Of a DNA stretch of 27,205 bases, positions 2,506-26,859 are shown piece by piece (within the stretch, counting starts at the first letter, position 1; every line of letters begins with the position of its first letter). This DNA is from a virus, in the UHGV virus genome UHGV-0267347. One strand, 5' to 3'. The translations under genes were made by a program, and so were the position numbers. The notes below the pieces were generated by a model that was not told where the DNA came from, did no database searches, and saw only the letters and a program-made list of their open reading frames with translations.

Positions 2506-2832
2506 TTACTCCTTAGAGCCACCAAACTTATTACCGATTACTCTCATTGCAGCCCCACGAATAGCATCAACACCGATCAGCCCCACCCCACCACCAATGG
2601 CAACAGATAGTGATTTAGGCCATCCGACATACTCAAGAGCGGATGCAAAAGTCAGCGTCAGAGCGCCACAGAGTAGAATTTCGAGTGTTTTTCGCTTCCA
2701 GCCGCCACCACCGCCAAAATAGGCAATACGTAAACCAGCCATAACAATCGACATAATCACTGCGCCCAGCGGTGTGTCTCCACGCCACCAGCTCTGGACC
2801 AACTCCAGCCAGGTATTTGGGTTATGAGGCAT
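2506..2832 (-). CDS. holin (lambda S-like class I, three predicted TM helices)
   Basis: 108 aa, three hydrophobic segments, Gly-rich loop (AYFGGGGGW, compare lambda S YLRGRYNGG) and charged C-terminus; sits directly upstream of the endolysin. Confidence 0.8.
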   Translation of the reverse strand: MPHNPNTWLELVQSWWRGDTPLGAVIMSIVMAGLRIAYFGGGGGWKRKTLEILLCGALTLTFASALEYVGWPKSLSVAIGGGVGLIGVDAIRGAAMRVIGNKFGGSKE

Positions 2833-2983
2833 TTGTAGTTATCTCTCACCTCGCCGATACAGGAGGTGCAAATTGAGGGAGTACCACGAACCGCAAACCA
2901 GAAGCGGAAACGTAAAAGAAGCCGAGCCAATGGATAAGTACTAGATAGACCAAGCCCAACGAATACCAAGGCCCAGAAATGAC

Positions 2984-3006
2984 AAAACCCGCTCGACGGC
3001 GGGTTT
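2984..3006 (-). terminator. tR'-like intrinsic terminator hairpin upstream of the holin
   Basis: cccgc-tcgacg-gcggg stem-loop flanked by AAAA on the plus strand and TTT on the other side; on the minus strand this is a hairpin followed by a U-run, about 150 nt before the holin start, as for lambda pR'-tR'-S. Confidence 0.4.
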
Positions 3007-3178
3007 AAGCTGCGTGGCGAAGTAACCACTCTTAACACAGTAATCTAGAAAATGCGGACCGCGTTAGTGATTTTTATCTGTTTTTCCATTATTTTTTTGC
3101 CACACAGCTTAAAACGAAAAATAAAGCAGGCGTTGCCAAACCTCACGGTGACAGTTGGATTAGAATGAGGACATACTT

Positions 3179-10459: not shown

Positions 10460-11086
10460 ATGGAAACGGTTGGTCAGCGTATAAAAGCTCTGAGAAGAGT
10501 TACCGGAACGTCCCAGAAAGAATTGGGTAAATTTTGTGGAGTAAGCGACGTTGCTGTGGGGTACTGGGAGAAAGACATCAATACCCCTGGTGGGGAGGCA
10601 CTTTCGAAATTAGCGAAGTTCTTCAATACGTCAATAGATTACATTCTTTATGGTGCTGAGTTTGAAGGCAAACTCGTCACAAACATGCGCAGAGTTCCTG
10701 TAATATCGTGGGTTCAGGCTGGGCAGTTTACTGAGTGCAGGGCAGCAGAAGTGTTTAGTGAAGTGGACAAGTGGGTAGATACATCATTAAAGATTGGTGA
10801 TAACTCATTTGCATTAGAGGTTAAAGGTGACTCCATGACTAACCCTAATGGCCTCCCAACAATACCAGAAGGCGCAACAGTGATTGTAGATCCAGATGCA
10901 GAACCTCGTCATGGAAAAATAGTCATCGCTCGACTTGATGGAACAAACGAAGCTACAGTAAAAAAATTAGTCATCGATGGCCCTCAAAAGTTTTTAGTGC
11001 CATTAAATCCTCGGTATCCCAACATCCCTATCAATGGTAATTGCCTTATCATTGGTGTAGTCAAAGGAGTTCAATACGAACTCTAA
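10460..11086 (+). CDS. cI: CI-type repressor (XRE HTH + S24 LexA-like peptidase)
   Basis: N-terminal HTH (QKELGKFCGVSDVAVGYWEKD), C-terminal GDSM serine motif (VKGDSMTNP) and downstream Lys (VKKLVIDG), characteristic of autocleaving phage repressors. Confidence 0.9.
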   Translation: METVGQRIKALRRVTGTSQKELGKFCGVSDVAVGYWEKDINTPGGEALSKLAKFFNTSIDYILYGAEFEGKLVTNMRRVPVISWVQAGQFTECRAAEVFSEVDKWVDTSLKIGDNSFALEVKGDSMTNPNGLPTIPEGATVIVDPDAEPRHGKIVIARLDGTNEATVKKLVIDGPQKFLVPLNPRYPNIPINGNCLIIGVVKGVQYEL

Positions 11087-13380: not shown

Positions 13381-13685
13381 TGACCACTTTTACCGACAAA
13401 GAACTGATTAAAGAAATTAAAGAGCGTATCAGCAGCCTTGACGTGCGAGACGATATTGAGCGCCGTGCTTATGAAATCGCACTCCTATCTCTGGAAGTAG
13501 AACCAGATGAACGCGAAGCTTATGAATTATTCATGGAAAAGCGTTTTGGTGACTTAGTAGATCGTCGGAGAGCAAAAAACGGCGATAACGAATACATGGC
13601 ATGGGATATGACTCTCGGTTGGATCGTCTGGCAGCAACGAGCTGGTATCCATTTCTCAACAATGTCACAGCAAGAGGTGAAATAA
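13380..13685 (+). CDS. hypothetical phage protein (101 aa)
   Basis: ATGA overlap with the upstream gene, acidic helical protein; function unknown. Confidence 0.55.
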   Translation: MTTFTDKELIKEIKERISSLDVRDDIERRAYEIALLSLEVEPDEREAYELFMEKRFGDLVDRRRAKNGDNEYMAWDMTLGWIVWQQRAGIHFSTMSQQEVK

Positions 13686-14035
13686 TGGAGCCATACAGCC
13701 TCACACTCGATGAGGCCTGTCATTTTCTCAAGATATCCAGACCGACTGCCATTAACTGGATACGCACAGGGCGTCTTCAGGCAACACGCAAAGATCCCAC
13801 TAAGAATAAATCTCCTTACCTCACAACACGACAAGCCTGCATTGCGGCTCTTCAGTCTCCGCTGCATACTGTCCAGGTGAGCGCGGGTGATGGCATAACA
13901 GAGGAAAGAAAATGTCACTCTTCCGCAGAGGTGAAATATGGTACGCCAGTTTCACATTGCCGAACGGTAAAAGATTTAAACAGTCTCTTGGAACAAAGGA
14001 CAAAAGGCAGGCGACAGAACTCCATGACAAGCTAA
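13685..14035 (+). CDS. xis: excisionase-like HTH DNA-binding protein
   Basis: Internal ATG 13685 ([31 protein letters not shown]): Xis/AlpA-type HTH directly upstream of and overlapping int, as in lambda xis-int. Confidence 0.55.
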
Positions 14036-15075
14036 AGGCTGAAGCATGGCGGGTCAGCAAACTTGGTGAAATACCTGATATAACGTTCGAGGAAGCGTGT
14101 GTCAGGTGGCTTGAAGAGAAAGCACATAAAAAATCACTGGACGATGACAAAAGCCGGATCGGATTCTGGCTTCAACATTTCGCAGGAATGCAACTAAGAG
14201 ACATTACTGAATCAAAAATTTATTCAGCAATGCAGAAAATGACGAACCGGCGTCATGAGGAAAACTGGAAACTCAGGGCAGAAGCATGCAGAAAAAAAGG
14301 GAAACCTGTTCCAGAATACACGCCAAAACCAGCGTCCGTTGCAACGAAGGCTACGCATCTTTCATTTATAAAGGCCCTACTAAGAGCCGCAGAGCGTGAA
14401 TGGAAAATGCTGGATAAGGCACCAATTATTAAAGTGCCTCAACCAAAGAATAAACGGATCCGCTGGCTGGAGCCCCATGAAGCACAAAGGCTGATTGATG
14501 AATGTCCGGAGCCATTAAAGTCTGTTGTTGAATTTGCACTGGCAACAGGCTTAAGACGCTCGAACATCATCAACCTTGAATGGCAACAAATAGATATGCA
14601 GCGCCGGGTGGCATGGATAAACCCGGAAGAGAGTAAATCAAACCGCGCAATTGGCGTTGCGCTGAATGATACTGCATGTCGCGTATTGAAAAAACAAATC
14701 GGGAATCATCACCGTTGGGTATTTGTGTACAAGGAAAGCTGTACCAAACCAGACGGAACGAAAGCGCCAACAGTAAGGAAGATGCGGTATGACGCAAACA
14801 CAGCCTGGAAAGCGGCGCTGAGACGGGCTGGTATTGATGATTTCAGATTTCACGACTTGAGACACACCTGGGCAAGTTGGCTGGTTCAAGCCGGAGTCCC
14901 GTTGTCAGTGTTACAGGAAATGGGAGGCTGGGAGTCTATCGAAATGGTTCGTCGATATGCTCACCTTGCACCTAATCACCTTACCGAACACGCACGGCAA
15001 ATAGACTCGATCCTGAACCCATCGGTCCCAAATTTGTCCCAGTCAAAAAATAAGGAAGGTACTAATGATGTGTAA
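13912..15075 (+). CDS. int: tyrosine integrase
   Basis: 387 aa; C-terminal catalytic signature R...HDLRHTWAS...GGW...VRRYAHL (R-H-x-x-R-Y), transcribed toward the att core. Confidence 0.95.
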
Positions 15076-15089
15076 CTTATTGATTTAAA

Positions 15090-15135
15090 TGGTGCCGATA
15101 ATAGGAGTCGAACCTACGACCTTCGCATTACGAAT
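15090..15135 (-). other. thrW: att core: 3' 46 nt of a tRNA-Thr(CGU) gene (anticodon loop to CCA); partial tRNA, 5' half absent
   Basis: Minus-strand sense AUUCGUAAUGCGAAGGUCGUAGGUUCGACUCCUAUUAUCGGCACCA: anticodon loop UUCGUAA (CGU), T-arm GGUUCGACUCC, acceptor 3' strand + CCA; matches recalled thrW 3' half; the expected complementary 5' acceptor strand is missing upstream. Confidence 0.7.
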
Positions 15136-15439
15136 TATAAGAATCCGCTTCTAATTCAAAGTATTACCCCATCAACACTGCGCTCACACGTCCCACCACA
15201 TCAAAACATGTAAAGCCTTGCAAGCCATTGTGAGGCCTTATGTGTCTCAGTTTTGTCCCACCTTGTATTATGACTTGCATAGCCAATGAAGATAAATGTG
15301 ACGACAAACGGCGCAGCAGTCTTCTTTTCCTTCATACTTTCCCCACCCAGCATGCATACCTTCTACCATAACTGTAGTTAATGTCTGTTATGAGCGAGGA
15401 GCGGACATTGCTAACAGCGTTCTGTGCGAATCAAGCAGG

Positions 15440-16858
15440 TCAGTCAAATAATTTATCGTCTGCCTCATAAGTTTCCTGAAACGTGAGGCTATTTGCATTA
15501 GGAACTGGATCATCTGCGTGTTGAATAATGGTTTGGCTTTTTAAAATGCTTTGCTTGAAAAAGCGTTTGCAAATTATCTCACCGTTAACTGGAAGCCAAT
15601 GCGTGGCCTCTGGAAATAGCGTAGAATTTATAGGGTTTTCCGCGTTTGGGTTATGAAAAATTTCAATTTCTGAAGTCCATGGCTCATAACTATAGGGTTC
15701 CCAAAGACGACGATATTGGTCACTGGCTACATCCATACTGAAGGGGATGCCACGTAAGGCTCCCGCCGAGTCATTAGCGAACTCACCAATCCTTATGTAC
15801 CGGTAGCCTTTGATCAAGGCGCCGGAAGAAACAGGTACTCTGCTCAGCTTGGATAAAGTCGCAGAATTAGAAAAAATAACCGCCGAGAGAGCAATGTTAT
15901 CGTGTGAATTAAACAAACCAGCACGGATTTTGGGGTCGCTTTTGAGGCAGTCGACAGTTTCTGCTACAGCCACAACCTTCCCATCTATTTCTTTTTCTCT
16001 TCCATAAAATCCATAGAGATAGGTAATTAGAGCCTCACGGCTCCACATCATTGAACCGGGAGCGTGAAAGTCCGCGATAGCAATGGCAAACGGCTTTCCT
16101 TCGACATGAGTGAGACTAGTGTAATTCTTGCGCAGTTTATTCCTTAGGGTCCGCGCATAACGTTCAGCCGCAATTCCCGATACCCTGTCTTGTCGGTTTA
16201 AAGGAAACGTCAGAGGTTCAGCCCTGGCATGGTCGTAACGGTCCGATGGATTAACTGTCACAGCTTCAATCCAGGCTTCTCCACCTGACCTGTTTATTAC
16301 GTGAAAATCAGGAGAGGGGTACTCCTGAGTGACTAACAACCCCTGTTCACGGAAACTGGCCAGGAGCATGGCTTCCCAAATACGTGTATGAAAGTTATCA
16401 GTCTGGCACTCTCTTGCCCAGTGAGTATCCGGATTTGGCATTGCAAGATACAATTGATTAAGCATCCATGCGCCAGGTGCTCTACAAGGATGTCCAAGTA
16501 GTTTGAATATGTTACTTGGTTGTCTACCTTCAACATCCCAAAGCGGTGCGCGCCTGCGTGTACCCGGAGGCAAAGGGACGCGACTCGCAGATTCATCGCA
16601 TGCCTCACGTATAATTGTGAAAGCCTCTTCTTCACTATATGAATCTGACTCCCAGCGTAGCACTGCCCATACATCGTCCTCACGACGCCGCATTATAAGA
16701 ATGCCATGCTTTCCGCTGTGACAATTACGTGTCAGTGCACAGACTGTGACATGATCATGACTACCCCAAGCGCTAACTGGAGGATCATCCCCAAATCCCA
16801 GACCTCGGGGAAGCGATAAGGCATATACATCGAATACACAAGACGGAATGGGAGTCAT
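15440..16858 (-). CDS. hypothetical protein (472 aa), unknown function
   Basis: Long ORF, no motif recognised; 5' third more GC-rich than the rest; directly downstream of the 156-aa ORF on the same strand. Confidence 0.65.
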   Translation of the reverse strand: MTPIPSCVFDVYALSLPRGLGFGDDPPVSAWGSHDHVTVCALTRNCHSGKHGILIMRRREDDVWAVLRWESDSYSEEEAFTIIREACDESASRVPLPPGTRRRAPLWDVEGRQPSNIFKLLGHPCRAPGAWMLNQLYLAMPNPDTHWARECQTDNFHTRIWEAMLLASFREQGLLVTQEYPSPDFHVINRSGGEAWIEAVTVNPSDRYDHARAEPLTFPLNRQDRVSGIAAERYARTLRNKLRKNYTSLTHVEGKPFAIAIADFHAPGSMMWSREALITYLYGFYGREKEIDGKVVAVAETVDCLKSDPKIRAGLFNSHDNIALSAVIFSNSATLSKLSRVPVSSGALIKGYRYIRIGEFANDSAGALRGIPFSMDVASDQYRRLWEPYSYEPWTSEIEIFHNPNAENPINSTLFPEATHWLPVNGEIICKRFFKQSILKSQTIIQHADDPVPNANSLTFQETYEADDKLFD

Positions 16859-16962
16859 CGAAAAGTCTCACTTAATGAGCCTAAAGATAGCGGCAAGCAG
16901 ACCATAAAAGACCGGTCCATAAGTAGGTACCTTCTGCATTCGTTAGCGATTTTTTGACTTTG

Positions 16963-17433
16963 CTAGCAGTCAAACCCAACAATTAACTCTTCAGTAATCT
17001 CACTTAAGGAGACTATGCCTTTATATCCAGTTTCAACGTATGGGACCACCCTATCACTCCATGCCTCTTCTGCTTTCCATGCAGTCCAGGGGATCAATTT
17101 ATCGAATTTGCTTTCATGAAGAAATAGTATTGAAATTCTATCATTAGGCACATGTTTTATAAACTGAGTTGGAAAACATTTATAGGCATGTTCTTCCCAA
17201 TGCTTAGTCCCATAACATCTGTAGTCAAAAAAGGAAACACAGTTACGCCGTCTGAAAAAACCATTTGATGAGTTTCCAAATCTTGACATCTGCAATAATT
17301 CCGAGTTTGGGATCAAAGCGCCGGACTGTTTTATGAGAGACATATTATTTTCAGGCGTAACATGGAACACTCTTCCTAAAAGAGCAGGTAATATATCATT
17401 GTGAGATATGATTTTGAGTTGACTGACTTTCAT
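16963..17433 (-). CDS. hypothetical protein (156 aa), unknown function
   Basis: AT-rich ORF, no motif recognised; probable first gene of a two-gene operon with 15440..16858. Confidence 0.55.
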   Translation of the reverse strand: MKVSQLKIISHNDILPALLGRVFHVTPENNMSLIKQSGALIPNSELLQMSRFGNSSNGFFRRRNCVSFFDYRCYGTKHWEEHAYKCFPTQFIKHVPNDRISILFLHESKFDKLIPWTAWKAEEAWSDRVVPYVETGYKGIVSLSEITEELIVGFDC

Positions 17434-17588
17434 ATATCTTGACCATCGAAATATGGATTAGTGCAATACGTTAACATAGCATAATGTCACTAGCGTCTCC
17501 TATTGGCACATAGCAGTCCTAGAGACACTGGCGTAAAGCCATGGAGGATCGGTGGGAGGAGGCGCTAATCCTTTCATACAAAAAATAT

Positions 17589-18093: not shown

Positions 18094-18129
18094 CCCCTTG
18101 CACTGGTTGGCGCCAAGCAAGGGGTTTTT
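18094..18129 (+). terminator. intrinsic terminator hairpin (strong in plus sense) abutting the ImmA-like stop codon
   Basis: ccccttgc-(15 nt loop)-gcaagggg followed by TTTTT. Confidence 0.5.
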
Positions 18130-18649
18130 ACATTTTGTCTAGCTGATAACGCGCTGCCACTAATGAAACTCCGCATGCCTCAGCAACATCCTCAGCCGTC
18201 ATACCTTTTAAAATACTGGCATGCATAGCTGGCACTAATAACTCACCACTAAAACATTTAGCTTGCCATTCACTACTCTCAAAAGGGCGGATTTTTACCC
18301 CTGGGGCAGAACGAGCAAATGCGATGTTCCTGTGCATAAGAAGATGACCCAGTTCATGCGCGGCAGTCATCCTATCTCGCCCTACCCCATTCAAAGCGCC
18401 TTCGTAAATGTCTTCGCGCAGAATCAATAAATGTTCCTGTGGGTATGTAAGACCATGCGTCTCTCCCATTTCTTTCATACCACCAATGTGGAACTCAAAA
18501 TCCGGGATCAACTGAGGCAATGCGAACTCAATTACCTCCATTACAGGGAATTTAAGCCCAGTAATACCAAATGCGCTCCGCAGAGATCTGACGATAGAAC
18601 GTATTGATTCACGATTCTGCGGAGGTACACGATAATCTTGTCCGCTCAA
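18128..18649 (-). CDS. ImmA/IrrE-family zinc metallopeptidase (COG2856-like)
   Basis: HEXXH motif in AAHELGHLLMH; 173 aa; immediately downstream of an XRE HTH gene. Confidence 0.85.
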   Translation of the reverse strand: MSGQDYRVPPQNRESIRSIVRSLRSAFGITGLKFPVMEVIEFALPQLIPDFEFHIGGMKEMGETHGLTYPQEHLLILREDIYEGALNGVGRDRMTAAHELGHLLMHRNIAFARSAPGVKIRPFESSEWQAKCFSGELLVPAMHASILKGMTAEDVAEACGVSLVAARYQLDKM

Positions 18650-18657
18650 GCCGCCTC

Positions 18658-19017
18658 CTACTGCTGTTTTCGATTCAAAATCTGTCGTAAATTACGGAAG
18701 TCTTCTTCATTTAACTCATCAAAACTACGAGCGAACGCAATTGCGACTTCACGAGCGTGGCCATTCTTACCTGACAAGCTGATCTCTACTGACTGCTGAG
18801 AGTCACGAGCTGCACTGATAAGCTTTTCTTTTTGTTTTTCATCCGCATTAAAATAGCTAATGATGCTATCAAGCACGGGCTTAGTGACCGCCCTTTTACC
18901 AGTTTCGATCGCTGAAAGATAAGACGAGGTCATGCCCATAGCCTCAGCCATGCTTTTAAGCGTAAGCCCCAAGTCTATGCGCATTTTTCTTACTGTCTTA
19001 CCAAACGGCGTTAACAT
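18658..19017 (-). CDS. XRE-family HTH transcriptional regulator
   Basis: N-terminal HTH (KMRIDLGLTLKSMAEAMGMTSSYLSAIETGKR); 119 aa; paired with the metallopeptidase gene. Confidence 0.85.
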   Translation of the reverse strand: MLTPFGKTVRKMRIDLGLTLKSMAEAMGMTSSYLSAIETGKRAVTKPVLDSIISYFNADEKQKEKLISAARDSQQSVEISLSGKNGHAREVAIAFARSFDELNEEDFRNLRQILNRKQQ

Positions 19018-19197
19018 AGTTGCTTCTCCAGTGTGTCAAAGACCTTCAGTACTTCAGGTCTCATTTTAAGTTAACACTCCACAGACATGAAATCAACAAA
19101 ATTCTGTTAATTTTTTTATCTTGCTTAGTTTATGAGTTTACATCTTATGTTGATAGAACTGTTGGTTGGTGAAGAATCATGGGGAAATGAGTCGTAA

Positions 19198-19353
19198 TCT
19201 CTTGATATTTTATGGTATGGAGATGAGCGTCAAAGCTACCATAGCGATGATTTTCCTGTTACCTACACCGCAGATAAGGATTCTGCTAATGCTTTTGTTC
19301 AGGAGACTCTGAAAGATACCTGGGAGTCTGCTGACGAGTGGTTTGTTCATTAA
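19198..19353 (+). pseudogene. 3'-terminal remnant (51 codons, no start codon) of an unidentified gene
   Basis: Open frame bounded by an upstream stop, reading [51 protein letters not shown], protein-like composition, ending 8 bp before repeat copy B. Confidence 0.35.
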
Positions 19354-19360
19354 TTAATAC

Positions 19361-19458
19361 GTAAAATCGATAACGGCTGGAAATCATTCAATACTCGCAC
19401 TATCGAAAGTTCACCAGCCAGCCACAGCACGTTCTTGCATACAACGTGCCTGCGGTTT
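19361..19458 (+). repeat. 98-bp direct repeat, copy B
   Basis: gtaaaatcgataacggctggaaatcattcaatactcgcactatcgaaagttcaccagccagccacagcacgttcttgcatacaacgtgcctgcggttt, followed by a T-run. Confidence 0.8.
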
Positions 19459-19549
19459 TTGAGACCGGTCCGATCATCAAACGAAACATAAAATTAGCTC
19501 ACACTATGAGGAAAAGTATCTTTTTTACTATGTAAATTCAAAGGATTAG

Positions 19550-20419
<870 letters not shown>

Positions 20420-20439: not shown

Positions 20440-20480
20440 AACCGCAGCACGATCTTCTTGCATACGACGTGCTACGGTTT
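20440..20480 (+). repeat. direct repeat, partial copy C (hairpin core only)
   Basis: aaccgcagcacgatcttcttgcatacgacgtgctacggttt shares the 3' hairpin core of copies A and B; lies between the GIY-YIG stop and the pin stop. Confidence 0.7.
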
Positions 20481-21034
20481 CATTTATCTCCGACCGGAAA
20501 CTTCTTATACAGTGTCGATATACCAACATCATAGATGATCGCCACCTTCTGGCGAGGAACGCCTGATGCAATTAATCGTCCGGCCTGCTCCCATTGTTCT
20601 GGTGTAAGTTTGGGGCGACGTCCACCAATTCGTCCCTGTGCGCAAGCTACTTCCAGTCCAGCTTTTGTTCGTTCAACAATCAGTTCACGCTCCATTTCAG
20701 CCAGGGCACCCATCACATGAAAGAAAAAGCGCCCCATTGGGGTACTGGTATCAATTGAATCCGTCAGACTACGAAAGTTGATGCCTCGTTCGCGCAACTC
20801 CTCCACCAGCACGACAAGATGCCGCATACTGCGCCCCAGTCGGTCCAGTTTCCAGACCACCAGCGTATCACCTGCCGATAATGTCCTGAGCAGTTTTTTC
20901 AGTCCCGGCCTTTCGGACTTTGTACCGCTTATCTTGTCTTCAAAAATCAGCTCGCATCCTGCACAGTTCAGCGCATTACGTTGTAGATCTGTGTTCTGGT
21001 CATTTGTTGACACACGTACATAGCCAATAAGCAT
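20480..21034 (-). CDS. pin: DNA invertase, Pin/Gin/Cin-family serine recombinase
   Basis: Start at internal ATG 21034; MLIGYVRVSTNDQNTDLQRNAL...LVVWKLDRLGRSMRHL...GRFFFHVMGALAEMERELI is near-identical to recalled e14 Pin; 184 aa. Confidence 0.95.
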   Translation of the reverse strand: MLIGYVRVSTNDQNTDLQRNALNCAGCELIFEDKISGTKSERPGLKKLLRTLSAGDTLVVWKLDRLGRSMRHLVVLVEELRERGINFRSLTDSIDTSTPMGRFFFHVMGALAEMERELIVERTKAGLEVACAQGRIGGRRPKLTPEQWEQAGRLIASGVPRQKVAIIYDVGISTLYKKFPVGDK

Positions 21035-21088
21035 GGTAGATCTCCCTGACAAAAGCAGGAATGATGCCATTTGCTCGTTATTTCTGCA

Positions 21089-21114
21089 TTTTCATAAACG
21101 TTGGTTTGGGAGAA
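21089..21114. other. 26-bp invertase crossover site (pix/gix-like), site 1
   Basis: Minus-sense TTCTCCCAAACC-AA-CGTTTATGAAAA; inverted repeat of site 2; half-site resembles recalled gix TTATCCAAAACC. Confidence 0.7.
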
Positions 21115-21555
21115 GCGGCAAAACGAAATGTGGGCAACGGGGAAAAACAAATCCCTGATATGTCTTTCTGGACGGTTACTGGTGGCAATGGAAATTTTGT
21201 GATTCGTCAACCTGACGGGCTAATCATTCAGATGGTTACTGTAAGTATAAGCGGTCCAGTGGCGATGAATGGAATGACTGATAATGCTTATGCCATTACA
21301 GGTTCTAATAAGTCTTATATTGCCACAGCCACATTGCCCTTTGTATTTCCTAATAAGGTGCTGGGCGTTATCCCTCTGGTATCAACAACAGCTTATGGTG
21401 GTGTATCCAGTAATATTACAGGTTCATACGCGACTGCGGTTTGTTCTTTTGCCGCTGTCAGGGGGAATAATACGATTGTGTTCAAAGTCGACAAACCACT
21501 GAATGCAGCCTTTCCTTCAGATACCAGCGTCTCAGCGTTAATCATTGGACGGTAA
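21103..21555 (+). CDS. alternative tail-fibre C-terminal variable segment (Sv'), promoterless and start-less in the current orientation
   Basis: Frame is open through crossover site 1 and encodes ...NVGLGEAAKRNVGNGEK...; after inversion it would fuse in frame to the constant N-terminus ending ...[10 protein letters not shown]. Confidence 0.7.
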   Translation, partial: GLGEAAKRNVGNGEKQIPDMSFWTVTGGNGNFVIRQPDGLIIQMVTVSISGPVAMNGMTDNAYAITGSNKSYIATATLPFVFPNKVLGVIPLVSTTAYGGVSSNITGSYATAVCSFAAVRGNNTIVFKVDKPLNAAFPSDTSVSALIIGR

Positions 21556-21557
21556 TA

Positions 21558-22001
21558 ATGAACTCAGTATTCTTTTCACCCGGAAGTAAAAGTTTTTATC
21601 TGCAAGAATTGTTTCCAGAATATGAGGATGCGGGAACGCTTCCTGATGATGTTATTGAAATTACCCGAGAAACATATGAGCAATTTCTTGGGCTGCATCC
21701 AGAAGGGAAAGAAATTGGCGCTGATAGTTCAGGACGGCCAGTATGGATTAATTCCCCACCCCCTTCAAAAGAGGATGAGGTGTTGACGGCTGAAATGAAA
21801 AAAATATCTTTGGTTTCAGAAGTCAATACCTACATCAATACCCATCAGTGGCCTGGCAAAGCTGCTATTGGTCGTCTGAAAGGTGAGGAACTGGCGCAAT
21901 ATAATTTGTGGCTGGATTATCTGGACGCACTGGAACTGGTTGATACCTCCAGGGCTCCAGATATTGAATGGCCTACGCCTCCGGCAGTTCAGGCCAGATG
22001 A
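21558..22001 (+). CDS. tail fibre assembly protein (alternative, Tfa'/U'-like)
   Basis: 147 aa; C-terminal ...[26 protein letters not shown] motif shared with the convergent tfa gene; lies inside the invertible segment. Confidence 0.8.
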   Translation: MNSVFFSPGSKSFYLQELFPEYEDAGTLPDDVIEITRETYEQFLGLHPEGKEIGADSSGRPVWINSPPPSKEDEVLTAEMKKISLVSEVNTYINTHQWPGKAAIGRLKGEELAQYNLWLDYLDALELVDTSRAPDIEWPTPPAVQAR

Positions 22002-22578
22002 CATCCGGCGCGGTGCTGGTATCTGTTACCGTCACCGCGTCAATGTAATCCAGCACGGCGTTAAGTCGGGTTGTTTCTGCCTGCGTCAACTTCCGCCCGG
22101 CCTGTAATTTCAGTTGAATCAGACTAATGGAAGCCATTGCAGCATCAATCAGTGACTGACGCTGTGCTTCTGCCGCTTCGACTGCTGCGCTATGCTGTGC
22201 CTCAGTATCGGTCACCCATTTCTCACCATCCCATTTATCGTATGGCGTTAATGGAGCGATAGTGGTCGTGTTTTCAGGGTAATCACCCGGAGCTGTGATT
22301 TCTTTTGATTCTCCTGTTTCGGTGCTATAGACGATTTCACCGCGATGGTCTGGCACATATTCCCATGAGTTAAAATCTGCAGAACGGCAAATTGCATAAC
22401 CAGCTTTATATGAGCCAGGAGCATCTAAACAGGAACATGCCGGGATACCGACACCCACAGCAAGATATTCAGTTGATGTGGAAATATATTCTCGTGTCTC
22501 ACCATCATAATTGTAAACGGTAATGTCTCCCGCCTTTGTGGTGATGAGTTCGCTATTTAATACAGCTTTATTCATCAT
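21973..22578 (-). CDS. tfa: tail fibre assembly protein (Tfa/U-like)
   Basis: 201 aa; C-terminal ...[30 protein letters not shown] is the conserved Tfa C-terminus; directly downstream of the tail fibre gene. Confidence 0.85.
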
Positions 22579-23360
22579 GCGGCCCTCACAATATAATTAA
22601 AGGCGATGTTACGTGGACGATTTTCATTTGCTGTTGGAACAACATTTGCCGCCGAGAAGTGAACATCTTGTCGGATTTTTCGGTCATTAGCGTATGTCAT
22701 AGATACGTTGATGTTATTCCGGACTGAGGTACCTCCGTAAAAAGCACCACTCACACTTTGAACATCAACAATTGCATTAATTTCGCTGTTTACGCGCAAC
22801 TGACCAAAACCGCCAGTAATGTTTCGAATAGCATCTCCTTGCGCTGAAAGCAGAGTTCGCCCACTATCCACACCACGTTCATCATCCCAGCCACGAATAA
22901 ACTCACCACGTAAATCAGGCAATTTATTTGTCGGATAAGCCTTTGCCAGTTCCGGGTATTCTTCAGCAGAAAAAGCGGCACCGTTGCATTTCAGCCAGCC
23001 TGTTGGCGGAGTGGCTGAAGGCCACGGAACAGGGACACCAACAGGTAATGCAGAGCCTTCTCCCAAACCAAGGTTTTCGAGAGCCGTTTTCACCGTGCCA
23101 TCCGATTTGATATCGCCAAACGGATTCTTGCGGCTTAACAGCAGCGCGCGAAGCGCGGTAAGTAGCTGGTCGTGCCGCCCCTTCTCCAGGCTGGCACCGG
23201 ACGCCTCCACAACGCTGCAAAGCTCCTCCTGCAACATGTCAAAGTAGTCATCATCCAGATCGGTGGCAGGCGTGCCGGTCTGGGGGTTACCACGGGTAAA
23301 ACCGTTCTTACCCGCGCCGAACTTATCCTTCTGCGCGGTTTTCGTGTCTATACGATGCAT
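22575..23360 (-). CDS. tail fibre protein: constant N-terminus (~98 aa) fused to invertible variable C-terminus
   Basis: Crossover site 2 lies in frame inside the gene; arrangement Sc-Sv-tfa / tfa'-Sv' / invertase matches the Mu G, P1 C and e14 P segments. Confidence 0.8.
23058..23083. other. 26-bp invertase crossover site (pix/gix-like), site 2, inside the tail-fibre gene
   Basis: Plus-sense TTCTCCCAAACC-AA-GGTTTTCGAGAG, imperfect palindrome; encodes the conserved LGLGE junction of the tail fibre. Confidence 0.7.
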
Positions 23361-23363
23361 GGA

Positions 23364-23948
23364 TTACTCCGGATATTTAAAAATTACGTAGGTATGCGAC
23401 GGGCAGAGTTTGTTAAGCACACATTCGACAACTGTGTCGCCCCAGATACGCAGTGCGGAATCACAGGGATCGCCACATGTCATCCAGGTGGTGTTGGTGG
23501 CGGCTGGCATGTTGACCTGCCAGTAATACCGCCATTCAGGCGCGTTCACAGCGTCAGTACAGGCCGATGAGCAGGTGAACGTGCTTTTGTCGTATCGCGT
23601 GATGGTGGCATCTGGTCTGCCCAGGGCAGCAAGCTGTGCAAGATAAAAATCCTCGTTGATGCCGCCCGCCAGGTTAACCTTCGCATCCAGCCGTTGCTGA
23701 CGCTGGCGAAGGGTCTGTGTCCCTGCGGGAATACATTCATCCGGCAGACCGCACAGACGCTCCCAGCGGTTTATCAGTTCAGTGGTGGTGCGCGGATCCA
23801 GCTCCCGCATCAGGGCATCCGCACGCTGATGAGCACGAGTTAATGAAGGTGCCGCACCGGCAATCGCCGGATCGCTGGCTGACCACGCCGGACCGGGGGG
23901 CAACAGTGCCGACAACAGACGGATGTAATCATCGTTTGTCACGTCCAT
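23364..23948 (-). CDS. YmfQ-like tail/baseplate protein (DUF2313, Mu gp48-like)
   Basis: 194 aa, same length and gene position as recalled e14 YmfQ, between the J-like gene and the tail fibre. Confidence 0.75.
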
Positions 23949-24997
23949 GAAATCGTCCCCAGAACCGCCAGTTCATTTTTTGCAATGGAGATATTGTCCG
24001 CCGGTGCAAGCAACTGATGGCTGTATTCCCCGTTCGCACCGGAAATCGCCTCACTGATACGCGACACCTTCAGTTCTCCCTGCGGATAACCATCACGCAG
24101 CAGGAACGAACGCAACTCCGCGGTGATGGCGGCTCGTATTTCCGGTGTATCCGGCGTAACGCGGATATGAAAATCCACCGTATGTGCCACCGGCCTGAAC
24201 ACATACAAATCAGAGCCTGCCACCGGAGCCAGTGGCCCGATATGTTGTCTTGCCGCCGTTTCCGTTGATTCTTCCGGAATGGGATTAATCAGGTCGCTGC
24301 TGGCAATCATCACACCGACAGTCCCCGTTCCCATCCAGTGACGGTATGTCCATGCGCGGGTAATGCCGGGCACTTCTTTAGCCCAGACGACATAGTCCCC
24401 GTCAGCCCCGCCCTGCGGCGTCCAGTAATACCGCTCAATGACGCGGGCGCGCCACGTTTCCAGCTCTTCAGTATCAAATCCGCCTGTCAGGGTGTCAGCC
24501 ACACCGGAAGACGGCAGACCATTAACCGGCGTGACCAGGATTAATGCCGTACCGTCGTCAGCGTTACCGACCGCGCCTGCACTTGAGCAGGCGATCGGCA
24601 CGCGCAGGACACCACCGGAGCTGGTTGCATCGGCAGTTGCCGTGTACTGCACCAGGTCATCGCGCTGAATAACACTCCCGGCGGTCACCTTCAGGCCATC
24701 GCTGACACCTTCCCAGCGCATATACCCGCTGGCAGCCGTGGCCCCCTTGCGCGGACACCGTTTCATCGCAGCATGTCGCGCCAGCCAGGACTCATCGCAC
24801 AAGTCAGGCAACATGTTCATTGCCAGATAATCGATGTACCCGTAAACCGTATGCAGCGCCGCCGCATACACCATTGCCCGCACGTCTTCATCCATGCGCC
24901 GGAGCGTGTCGCTGACGTCCAGCCTGGCGAATAAATCGTTACGGAGCATACTGATATTTTCTGCCAGCGTCGGACGCTGAAATTCACTGTCCGCCAT
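23939..24997 (-). CDS. baseplate J-like protein (Mu gp47 / P2 gpJ family)
   Basis: 352 aa; position and size within the baseplate module; call from recalled homology only. Confidence 0.8.
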
Positions 24998-25412
24998 GCG
25001 TTATCGCACTCCACAGATCATCAAAAGAAATCATTACCGGTCCGTCACGACGCCAGAGAGTGATACTGTTACCCAGTTCATTAATCCCGGTGCGGCGGAT
25101 ATCCAGATCAATACGGGACACCACGCCATCATCAATCATCCATTGCAGGCATTCGCGGATATACCCCCTTACCGTCTGCACCAGCTGATTGGTCAGTTTG
25201 CTGCGCTGAAGCAGCCACAGTCGGGAGCCGTAACGGTCATTCTGTACCGCAGGCCAGGTATCCCCCCACCATCCCATCGGGACGTCGGCATTGTCATCAG
25301 GTTCAGCCCGCCGCCAGGTGAACATGGAAATCACCACGGCACGGGTCAGCGGATCCAGCGGTGCGCTGGCGCAGGTGCGTTTACCGTTCACCGTCAGCCA
25401 CAGTTCCATCAT
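24984..25412 (-). CDS. baseplate protein (Mu gp46-like / GPW-gp25 family)
   Basis: 142 aa, between the V-like and J-like genes, as gpW/gp46 in P2- and Mu-type baseplate modules. Confidence 0.65.
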   Translation of the reverse strand: MMELWLTVNGKRTCASAPLDPLTRAVVISMFTWRRAEPDDNADVPMGWWGDTWPAVQNDRYGSRLWLLQRSKLTNQLVQTVRGYIRECLQWMIDDGVVSRIDLDIRRTGINELGNSITLWRRDGPVMISFDDLWSAITHGGQ

Positions 25413-25957
25413 GCCTCCATCGCTTTATCAGGTTTGTCGGTGTTACTGCCCTGACCGTTCTCTCTGTGACGATGCCAGTTATAGGCAAGCCTCATCGCTG
25501 ACATGGTGGTGCCGCTGGAGTCGCACAGGTCTTTCACCTGTCCGGTCACTTCCAGGTCCATTTCAAAACGAGCCTTAGGCGCATTGCGAAACGTGATCGT
25601 TTTCCCTGCACCGTCCACCACGATCCCCGCCCGGGTCAGCGTCACGGACTGCCCCTGATCGTCATAGACAGCCACCTCACCCGTCTGCAGCCCTTTCAGG
25701 CGGTAGCGCCGGTCCGACACCGTAACAACCACCGCATGAGAACGGTCACCATCCGGAAACAACACCACCGCTTCCGCACCGCTGTTTGCCCTTGCGGTAA
25801 AACCGTAGGGTTCAAGATGTTCAACCCCGGCTTTGGGTTCACCGGCAATCAGGGACACATCCACGGTCTGACATTTCGTGGCGGCACTGATGCTTTTCAC
25901 CACCGCCCGCCCAATCAGGCCGAGGAGTTGTCGCTGTATGGTTTCAATCGCCTTCAT
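25409..25957 (-). CDS. baseplate spike/assembly protein V (Mu gp45-like)
   Basis: 182 aa; ATGA overlap with the downstream gene; position in the module; call from recalled homology only. Confidence 0.75.
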   Translation of the reverse strand: MKAIETIQRQLLGLIGRAVVKSISAATKCQTVDVSLIAGEPKAGVEHLEPYGFTARANSGAEAVVLFPDGDRSHAVVVTVSDRRYRLKGLQTGEVAVYDDQGQSVTLTRAGIVVDGAGKTITFRNAPKARFEMDLEVTGQVKDLCDSSGTTMSAMRLAYNWHRHRENGQGSNTDKPDKAMEA

Positions 25958-26859
25958 CAGAACGGGTCCTCCTGTACTCTGGCTTTTTTCTTTTTCCGCG
26001 CGCCGGGAGCTTCGGGTTCAGGCAGATAAGCATCAGGTGGGCCGACACGGATTTCCGTCAGGGTGCCATTCTGGTCCTGAGTAAACGTGACTTCCGAGAC
26101 AAGCAGTTCGGTATTGTCGAAACCACAGACCGGATCGAAGACAATCACCCGCTGGTTGGGCTGCCACAGCGTACCGTTACCCTGTCGCCAGCCCTGCACC
26201 ACATAGGTGGTTTCATCCGTCCGCGCCGCCCGTTGCCGGGCTTCAAAGTCCGCACGGGCAATACAGCCTGCCCCCGTAGCCTGCCCTGGCTGCCTGATAT
26301 ACATCGGACGGTAACGGGCAATAAATGCGTCCTCTGTGCGGGCCCGCAGCGCGGTGGTGGTGGCCTCACCGAAATCATCGTCGTTTCCGGCACGCTGCCC
26401 CGCCACCTGGTAAACTGAAAACCGCTCCCGGATACTCTTCTCCGTATCACAGGAAAGGATATTTTCCCCGAGTACCAGCGCAGTATGTGCCCGCGTTGAG
26501 CCAATACCGCCAATCACCAGCCTGCCGTGCGGGTCGTCGTAAGCCAGTGCCTGCTGCTGACCGAGTATTTTGTTGATTACCTCAATCACCGTTTCACCGT
26601 GATCAGGCTGAACATCAGGAATAACACCCGACGGCGCACCGCTGTTCACCACCTCAATGCCGAAAGGCGCAGCAAGCGCCTGCGCAATCTGCACCAGCGA
26701 GCGTCCGTTAAACTGTGTCGGTTCGGCTGCACAGTCAATCAGGTCAGCCGTCAGACTGCGTCCGGCAATACCGGTACTGACCGAACGGGCATCGTAACGA
26801 ACGGGCGTCGCCTCCACCCAGCCGGTGATCACCAGCTCATCACCAATCAGTACCTCCAC
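25957..26859 (-). CDS. Mu gp44-like tail/baseplate hub protein (P2 gpD family)
   Basis: 300 aa; N-terminal L.(V/I).G.....GW motif shared with the N-terminus of the plus-strand ORF at 27109; weak SD, so the start is uncertain. Confidence 0.65.
   Translation of the reverse strand: MEVLIGDELVITGWVEATPVRYDARSVSTGIAGRSLTADLIDCAAEPTQFNGRSLVQIAQALAAPFGIEVVNSGAPSGVIPDVQPDHGETVIEVINKILGQQQALAYDDPHGRLVIGGIGSTRAHTALVLGENILSCDTEKSIRERFSVYQVAGQRAGNDDDFGEATTTALRARTEDAFIARYRPMYIRQPGQATGAGCIARADFEARQRAARTDETTYVVQGWRQGNGTLWQPNQRVIVFDPVCGFDNTELLVSEVTFTQDQNGTLTEIRVGPPDAYLPEPEAPGARKKKKARVQEDPF

Follow-up and report, generated by a model that had tools for sequence, protein, structure and literature searches.

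The tRNA-Thr fragment and the integration genes

The stretch of DNA analysed here, referred to as the window, is 27,205 nt of the virus genome UHGV-0267347. This study deals with a short fragment of a tRNA gene at positions 15090-15135, the integrase gene int that runs towards it from the left, and the DNA that lies to its right. On the minus strand the fragment reads ATTCGTAATGCGAAGGTCGTAGGTTCGACTCCTATTATCGGCACCA, which is the 3′ 46 nt of thrW, the gene for tRNA-Thr(CGU). Its first base is the final one of the 5′ anticodon-stem strand; the anticodon loop (CGT), the variable region, the T arm, the 3′ strand of the acceptor and the CCA follow. The CCA end points toward int and the anticodon end toward the right-hand DNA. 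The 46-mer is found a single time in the window, also when up to 3 mismatches are tolerated, and 100 shuffles gave 0 matches. The same 46 nt are, letter for letter, the published core of the phage attachment site (attP) of SfI, SfII, SfV, SfX and P22 (PMC3636060), and with this exact single match 15090-15135 (minus strand) was annotated as an attP core.

The fragment does not qualify as a functional tRNA-Thr gene. ARAGORN reported 0 tRNA genes over the whole window, and the Rfam tRNA model gave the fragment 14.9 bits versus a gathering score of 29, with a convincing alignment limited to the T-arm and acceptor 3′ part. A complete cloverleaf, with 5′ acceptor strand, D arm and anticodon stem, is absent from the site, and in alignment positions 15136-15165 are unrelated to the 5′ half of thrW. 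When the window is aligned with a chromosomal int-thrW-proA junction the two are identical through 15135, after which the 5′ half of the tRNA follows in the chromosome (on this strand GCGCTGCTCTACCAACTGAGCTATATCGGC) and TATAAGAATCC... in the window. An Rfam match to 'Plastid-ycf2' (16.2 bits versus a gathering score of 65.7, E 1.7) was discarded as noise. The exact match and the alignment bear out a preliminary description of this DNA, which had recognized at these positions a 46-nt 3′ part of tRNA-Thr(CGU) without its 5′ acceptor strand. Its view of the fragment as a copy of an att core rather than a working tRNA gene was right, and the tRNA scan returned no complete tRNA, as it had expected.

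The same description had int running into the fragment, and the int gene (13912-15075, plus strand) indeed ends with a stop codon 14 nt short of the core. It encodes a tyrosine integrase of 387 aa (Pfam Phage_integrase, E 3.2e-48), and its nucleotide sequence is 98.6-99.6% identical to the int genes of the Sf phages and about 79% identical to that of P22. The excisionase gene xis lies at 13685-14035 (plus strand; Pfam HTH_17, E 2.9e-08). Its coordinates were transferred, via the alignment offset, from positions 2786-3136 of the junction in strain CFSAN061762 (L002), which gives the 116 aa annotated in relatives; the longest open reading frame starts at 13601. An excisionase annotation is present beneath the match in the records of SfIV, SfV, SfI, SfII and P22. 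The gene order, with int immediately upstream of attP, xis before int and accessory genes on the other side, is stated likewise in PMC3636060.

Arms of the attachment site

Motifs that could bind the integrase (Int) were detected to the left and right of the core. Within the 3′ end of int, two GTCCCA motifs spaced by 11 nt (15025-15041, plus strand, motif scan) are candidate arm-type Int sites and mark the P′ arm. The P arm (15136-15260, plus strand), in which the free Sf phages are about 99% identical to the window up to 15260, contains GTCCCA at 15190 and 15255 and a degenerate GTCTCA at 15244, 11 nt ahead of the final GTCCCA and mirroring the 11-nt spacing in the P′ arm. GTCCCA is present 10 times in the window when both strands are counted, and the four plus-strand copies at 15025, 15036, 15190 and 15255 fall within 236 bp about the core (Poisson P about 2e-6, or about 3e-4 when corrected for window scanning). 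All four are invariant in the attP of P22 and of the Cronobacter phage ENT47670, the arms of which have otherwise diverged, and the similarity to these two phages collapses directly past 15260, just after the outermost GTCCCA. A consensus scan further predicts a site for integration host factor (IHF), WATCAANNNNTTR (AATCAATAAGTTA), on the minus strand at 15073-15085, 4 nt from the core on the P′ side; the window has 4 matches to this consensus versus 1.4 expected. From these features the attP extends over about 236 bp (15025-15260). The values tabulated for P22 are an attP of about 260 bp, IHF sites and a Xis of 116 aa (PMC4111918).

The IHF consensus sits in 18 nt (15072-15089) that resemble the trailer of thrW. 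Exactly or with 1-3 changes, these 18 nt past the tRNA CCA are found in the phage P′ arm, in native chromosomal flanks, among them those of attR junctions, and in the arms of other islands at thrW (flanks of L007-L029). In some hosts that share the trailer the block of identity between attP and the bacterial attachment site (attB) is therefore 64 bp, not 46 bp.

Two further features lie to the right of the core. A conserved, terminator-like hairpin downstream of int at 15206-15245 (plus strand; RNA fold -18.9 kcal/mol, z -3.38) was matched in the scan for terminators, and 'Terminator' is annotated beneath the match in the records of SfII and phage L. As read from the alignment, two of the nine inner pairs would be broken in the P22 version. 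It is a speculation, by analogy with lambda, that this hairpin could be a sib-type element that is joined to int only in the attP arrangement. The P arm is followed by a spacer (15261-15410, plus strand) that is common to the members of the family lacking gtr genes and after which the cargo starts. Homology ends at about 15395-15410 in L003, L007, L011, L015, L018, L021 and L026, and at 15257-15260 in the gtr phages.

Junctions in free phages and lysogens

[quoted passage not shown] The attP region of a lysogen is divided between both prophage ends (PMC3636060), and attP can be told apart from the left and right prophage attachment sites (attL and attR) because each has its own combination of flanks around the core. 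The genome paper of phage L describes a 'false tRNA gene' just downstream of int that rebuilds thrW upon integration.

In free phage genomes window positions 13900-15260 are matched without interruption, past the core and over a further 125 bp, with identities of 99.6% (SfIV), 99.0% (SfV), 98.7% (SfI) and 98.6% (SfII), and attP is annotated at the matching spot in the SfI record. On a larger scale, positions 3-25000 are collinear as one place with SfIV (record 15371-39648), SfII and SfV, at about 96-97% identity over the alignable half.

The chromosomes of lysogens present the two sides of the core separately. Many chromosomes of Escherichia coli (E. coli) match 13900-15135 alone, at up to 100%, and carry a 'tRNA-Thr' annotation where the match ends; strain CFSAN061762 has, in this order, xis, int, intact thrW, proA and proB. 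Other chromosomes match only rightwards from 15072 or 15084, and in PSJ-23 the order is paoABCD, a fragment of a LysR gene, the core and then the cargo of the window. A three-way alignment makes this explicit: the window equals the int-thrW junction up to 15135 and the pao-side core-cargo junction from 15090 rightwards. Isolate NRZ106056 carries both on a single prophage of about 44 kb between pao/yagP and thrW, with the order, from the pao/yagP side, core, cargo, late genes, lysis genes, Q, repressor, xis, int and thrW. Cargo and int are at opposite ends, about 43 kb apart, and the cargo is 99.5-99.8% identical to that of the window, with an IS3 element inserted. In ordinary lysogens the two flanks seen in the window are about 40 kb apart, int by the intact thrW and proA, the cargo by a core fragment and the pao genes, and the P arm is present at the far (attR) end. 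The IMG/VR contig L026 begins with the core and the P arm and ends with int and the core. With 30 junctions classified, the position of the break in the window is that of the break in the attL and attR junctions of many lysogens.

These comparisons bear on a simple alternative, namely that the fragment is a decayed tRNA pseudogene, or a chance resemblance, and has no role in recombination. The absence of the 5′ half would fit such an origin and is the only point in its favour. The identity of 46 out of 46 nt, the lack of matches in shuffled sequence, a break placed exactly where lysogen junctions break, and flanking arms that are conserved across diverged phages all argue against it, and we regard this explanation as so improbable that it can practically be disregarded.

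A chromosomal flank beside the core, whether the thrW 5′ half and proA, the pao/yagP side or another island, was not found in the window; the core has an Sf-type int on its left and a P arm of the Sf/P22 type on its right. Judged from these flanks, the site has a phage arm on either side of the core and is an attP (P-O-P′), not an attL or attR. The preliminary description had come to another view, taking the core for the end of a lambdoid prophage and the cargo and 'e14/Mu-like remnant' on its right for a separate island in a tandem array at the tRNA site. Mixed tandem arrays at thrW are real, and may contain a P4-like integrase/AlpA/primase set, a truncated int with MarR and a SPATE autotransporter, or a CP4-6-like CbtA/CbeA island. 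However, in those arrays the foreign elements sit on the CCA side of the core, where the window has its Sf-type int. A junction of prophage and chromosome on the int side would hold the tRNA 5′ half, which is absent, and the free Sf phages do not stop at the core but continue through it to 15260 at 98.6-99.6% identity. The right-hand DNA begins with a P arm about 99% identical to that of the free Sf phages and conserved in P22. Its late genes are open and complete-looking, not those of a remnant, and belong to the collinear match of the whole window with SfIV, SfII and SfV. Moreover, the same cargo and the same int bracket one prophage in NRZ106056, of which the two flanks of the window are the ends. 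It is thus very unlikely that an attL or attR with an unrelated neighbouring island is present here. Neither a complete tRNA nor a second att copy, the observations that the preliminary description named as able to overturn it, occurs inside the window; neither of them is discriminating, unlike a comparison with the attP, attL and attR sites that related phages and lysogens have.

Mixed arrays that abut the end of an SfV-like prophage were also seen among the contexts of the 472-aa cargo gene discussed below (L032, L033, L036, L037 and L040).

Free genome or tandem lysogen

The contiguous arrangement, with int, core and P arm in one piece, occurs in every free Sf phage genome, in six IMG/VR contigs, in phage-sized circular records and in one chromosome, that of E. 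coli ET201, which is the sole contiguous chromosome among the matches listed from 5,426 complete E. coli genomes. The P arm of the window is present at the thrW site in roughly two thirds of complete E. coli genomes; 3,523 E. coli genomes contain it. The circular records are filed as plasmids and measure 38.9, 41.5 and 41.7 kb; the 44.8-kb pCE-O153H30-A also belongs here. Along the window the order is xis, int, P′ arm, core, P arm, accessory slot, Pin invertase, tail fibre and baseplate. In view of the above, the site is likely to be the attP of an SfV-like, thrW-integrating temperate phage, with lambdoid early genes and a contractile tail of the Mu type, in its unintegrated arrangement, i.e. 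in the order of the virion or of the circularised genome.

An internal junction between two copies, or close relatives, of an SfV-like phage that lie head to tail in a tandem polylysogen at thrW would be identical to attP. The thrW-proximal copy would in that case have supplied the cargo and tail genes on the right, and the distal copy int and the early genes on the left. ET201 provides an actual example. After a CP4-6-like island it has two successive units of core, DUF262 cargo, tail to early genes and int, and then thrW and proA; the sequence of its internal junction is that of the window. Such an arrangement is rare, as ET201 has no second among the chromosomal matches listed, and nothing in the window is duplicated or degraded; the free Sf phage genomes and several phage-sized circular records have the same contiguous order. 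Because chromosomal cases are this infrequent among the 5,426 genomes, we consider a tandem origin the less probable of the two, though one with some realistic chance. Also if it applied, both flanks would belong to the same phage type and the site would still be a regenerated attP. Whether its origin is free or tandem, the two sides of the core are, on comparison with relatives, of one phage type.

At the thrW locus of ET201 (NZ_CP100994.1, 3,564,000-3,644,300; L031/L030) a single SfV-like myophage is present as a tandem double lysogen, with the CP4-6-like island after it. Many genes are frameshifted in both copies in this assembly, so the sequence quality is doubtful.

Some observations weigh against assignment to a free or circular genome. 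The window covers 27 kb of a genome of about 40 kb and has uninformative ends, and cannot by itself separate a free or circular molecule from the internal junction of a tandem lysogen. The contiguous combination of Sf-type int, attP and the PD-T7-1 cargo described below was not found in IMG/VR, metagenome contigs or complete E. coli genomes, so there is no independent free-state copy of this exact phage. A gapped pattern of the Sf-type int end, the core and the spacer on the PD-T7-1 side gave 0 matches in IMG/VR and 0 in metagenome contigs, and no complete E. coli genome, phage record or plasmid record covered 13900-17500 for at least 80%. Finally, the function of the GTCCCA motifs as Int-binding sites, the use of the IHF site and the position of the crossover are all predicted.

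Contiguous sites were also sought with a 70-nt pattern (15076-15145), which had 22 matches in IMG/VR and 2 in GTDB genomes. These were reclassified by BLAST and inspection of the flanks. The pattern proved not to be specific for attP, because the 18 nt of 15072-15089 are shared with the phage by many chromosomal flanks downstream of thrW. True attP-type sites among the matches were only L006, L010, L011, L012, L013 and L024, and L028 (Shigella flexneri) and L029 (E. coli) were of the attR type.

One of the circular records has a damaged site. The 44.8-kb circular 'plasmid' pCE-O153H30-A (NZ_CP172337.1; L004, 9141-9312) is an SfV-like phage genome with Avs2 in the cargo slot, and its attP has a deletion of about 132 bp (approximately window 15114-15245) in which 20-22 nt on the anticodon side of the core and the greater part of the P arm are lost. 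A phage that is unable to integrate at thrW in this way might persist, or be recovered, only as an episome.

Possible recombination mechanism

Following the paradigm of lambda and P22, the N-terminal domain of Int would bind the arm motifs and its catalytic domain the core, and Int together with DNA-bending proteins would form an intasome on the approximately 236 bp of 15025-15260. The core could then recombine with the identical sequence in chromosomal thrW. The crossover would be expected at the anticodon-loop end of the identity block, and a position near this end is the general pattern of tRNA-targeting tyrosine integrases. The outcome can be read from the lysogens, in which int stands beside thrW and the 46 nt supplied by the phage complete the tRNA, leaving the gene intact. 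The displaced chromosomal copy of the 46 nt is found about 40 kb away, beside the cargo and the pao/yagP flank. Such junctions would be the natural products of Int-dependent recombination with attB in thrW. The slot beside the P arm acts as a swap-in locus for genes that are useful to the lysogen, for O-antigen conversion in the Shigella phages and for anti-phage defence in the present phage.

The accessory slot beside the P arm

The first gene after the spacer (15440-16858, minus strand) encodes a 472-aa homologue of PD-T7-1 (PADLOC PD-T7-1, E 2.8e-69; PD-T7-5, E 2.6e-35; phrog_8571). Profile positions 120-447 of 452 align to residues 113-446, which leaves the N-terminal 112 residues outside the match. 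Identical copies of the protein are recorded in 1420 blocks of the collection. It is constantly accompanied by an orphan gene for a 156-aa protein (16963-17433, minus strand) that had 0 matches in Pfam, PADLOC, PHROGs and NCBIfam. This gene lies directly upstream of the 472-aa gene in nearly every context (L001, L005 and L032-L039), including a Rac-like prophage at a different chromosomal site (L039). The conserved pairing suggests that the 156-aa protein and the PD-T7-1 homologue could form a two-gene unit, an undescribed form of that system.

Further along the slot are an ImmA/IrrE-type M78 metallopeptidase that resembles capP (18128-18649, minus strand; Pfam Peptidase_M78, E 1.4e-09; PADLOC capP, E 6e-11) and an XRE-type HTH regulator that resembles capH (18658-19017, minus strand; Pfam HTH_31/HTH_3; PADLOC capH, E 3.6e-10). 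In CapH/CapP-type pairs an HTH repressor and an M78 protease govern a neighbouring defence operon. The profile matches of this pair are moderate, and the single-gene defence modules that flank it occur without it in other loci. In NRZ106056 a fragment of a DinI-like pseudogene is annotated in the equivalent of the intergenic region 19018-19594.

The last cargo gene (19595-20419, plus strand) encodes a PD-T4-3 / CMoRE GIY-YIG nuclease (PADLOC PD-T4-3, E 2e-140; Pfam LEM-3_GIY-YIG). The profile is matched over its full length (positions 1-255 of 256) and the match begins at residue 18, so the start is likely at 19646, giving a protein of 257 aa. PD-T4-3 is now described as CMoRE, a type IV nuclease that acts on DNA with 5-hydroxymethylcytosine (5hmC) and glucosyl-5hmC (5ghmC) (PMC12923530). 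By full-length similarity including the GIY-YIG domain the copy in the window can be assigned to this type. A promoter scan of the cargo region gave results below shuffle expectation and was uninformative.

A survey of about 30 related junctions shows that the contents of the slot vary. In other members it holds gtrA-gtrB-gtrX with or without an acyltransferase, Avs2, a DUF262 type IV restriction enzyme (mREase), an EcoRII-type restriction-modification system, PDC-S15 (FRG domain) with a RiboL-PSP HEPN protein, a ParA-like four-gene module, a trypsin-like protease or an AraC-like gene. From its gene content the slot is best described as a variable defence and superinfection-exclusion locus inside one phage, adjoining attP, and not as an array of separate islands. 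The preliminary description had proposed a hotspot for defence cargo; the neighbouring DNA does carry defence genes, but they are located in a slot inside one phage next to attP and not in a tandem array of islands. Defence hotspots on prophages are an established concept (preprint 10.1101/2022.05.12.491691), and a narrow literature search found no paper that names this slot as one. Tentatively, the segment from 15260 or about 15410 to Pin may be an uncatalogued site at which defence genes are swapped, and which could be mined for new systems such as the 156-aa protein.

Early and late genes

To the left of the site lie lambdoid early and regulatory genes, including a repressor with S24-peptidase and HTH domains at 10460-11086, and annotated relatives carry O/P-type replication, Q and lysis genes. 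To the right the slot is followed by a serine invertase of the Pin/Gin type (20480-21070, minus strand; Pfam Resolvase, E 6.9e-50, and HTH_7). Next to it is an invertible tail-fibre segment of 1.9 kb (21096-23076) that is bounded by 20-nt inverted repeats (21096-21115 and 23057-23076) with 95% complementarity and contains alternative fibre C-termini and assembly chaperones (Pfam Caudo_TAP twice, Gp53-like_C and Collar). Two fibre assembly chaperones in opposite orientations beside a Pin-type invertase are indicative of a host-range switch of the Mu G / e14 P type. Mu-type baseplate genes, with homologues of gp48, gp47/J, gp46, gp45 and gp44/P (23364-26859, minus strand; Pfam), are all open, and this region is 96-97% identical to contigs of Sf phages. 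Within the window the right-hand late module looks intact and not like a remnant. Since the whole window is collinear with SfIV, SfII and SfV, its lambdoid early and Mu-like late regions can be considered halves of one known phage type. A mosaic of a lambdoid genome and a Mu-type tail is the known body plan of SfV, SfI and e14 (PMC3636060); the 'e14/Mu-like' impression of the preliminary description stems from this shared mosaic.

Comparison with known systems

The closest relatives are SfV, SfI, SfII, SfIV and SfX. The core of their attP is identical over its 46 nt, int, xis and both arms are 98.6-99.6% identical up to 15260, and the order of accessory genes, attP, int and xis as well as the body of lambdoid early genes with a Mu-type tail are shared. 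The Sf phages have gtrA-gtrB-gtrX in the slot, whereas the window has the PD-T7-1 homologue, the 156-aa orphan, the capH/capP-like pair and PD-T4-3, and its P arm is followed by the extra spacer 15261-15410, which the Sf gtr phages lack. P22, and likewise phage L, ST64T and BTP1, has the same 46-nt core and thrW target, with about 79% nucleotide identity over xis, int and attP. The four GTCCCA motifs and the hairpin block of the P arm are conserved in P22, the size of attP is comparable and Xis also has 116 aa. However, P22 is a podovirus with a different late region, its arms have diverged outside the motifs, and its slot holds gtrABC.

The similarity to the attP of lambda is one of outline: a heterobivalent tyrosine integrase, an attP of about 240 bp, probable arm-type sites in both arms and a predicted IHF site by the core. 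A structured element past attP that would be linked to int only before integration recalls lambda sib, although the role of the sib-like hairpin is putative. Core and target are different, attB being intergenic in lambda and the 3′ part of a tRNA gene here. The element e14 of E. coli K-12 is a defective remnant integrated in icd. It has a Pin invertase, an invertible tail-fibre segment and Mu-type baseplate genes related to SfV (PMC3636060); unlike e14, the window has open late genes that are attached to an int and attP of the thrW type. The defence hotspots of P2-like prophages and P4-like satellites (Vassallo et al., preprint 10.1101/2022.05.12.491691, and references therein) share with the slot that unrelated defence systems interchange at a fixed position of the backbone. 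They differ from it in phage family and in position, which here is between the P arm of attP and the Pin/tail-fibre module of thrW-integrating SfV-like phages.

Implications

The identity of this attP was already known; the finding is an ordinary one and advances no open question. For annotation it illustrates that a tRNA fragment beside an integrase gene does not by itself mark the end of a prophage, and that the side on which the tRNA half is missing, together with comparison to the junctions of free phages and lysogens, decides between attP, attL and attR. Beyond existing knowledge it offers at most a modest lead, concerning the accessory slot and the 156-aa protein that accompanies the PD-T7-1 homologue. 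Read as an attP, the site would place several anti-phage genes on one SfV-like phage, which would be another case of temperate phages bringing defence to E. coli via thrW.

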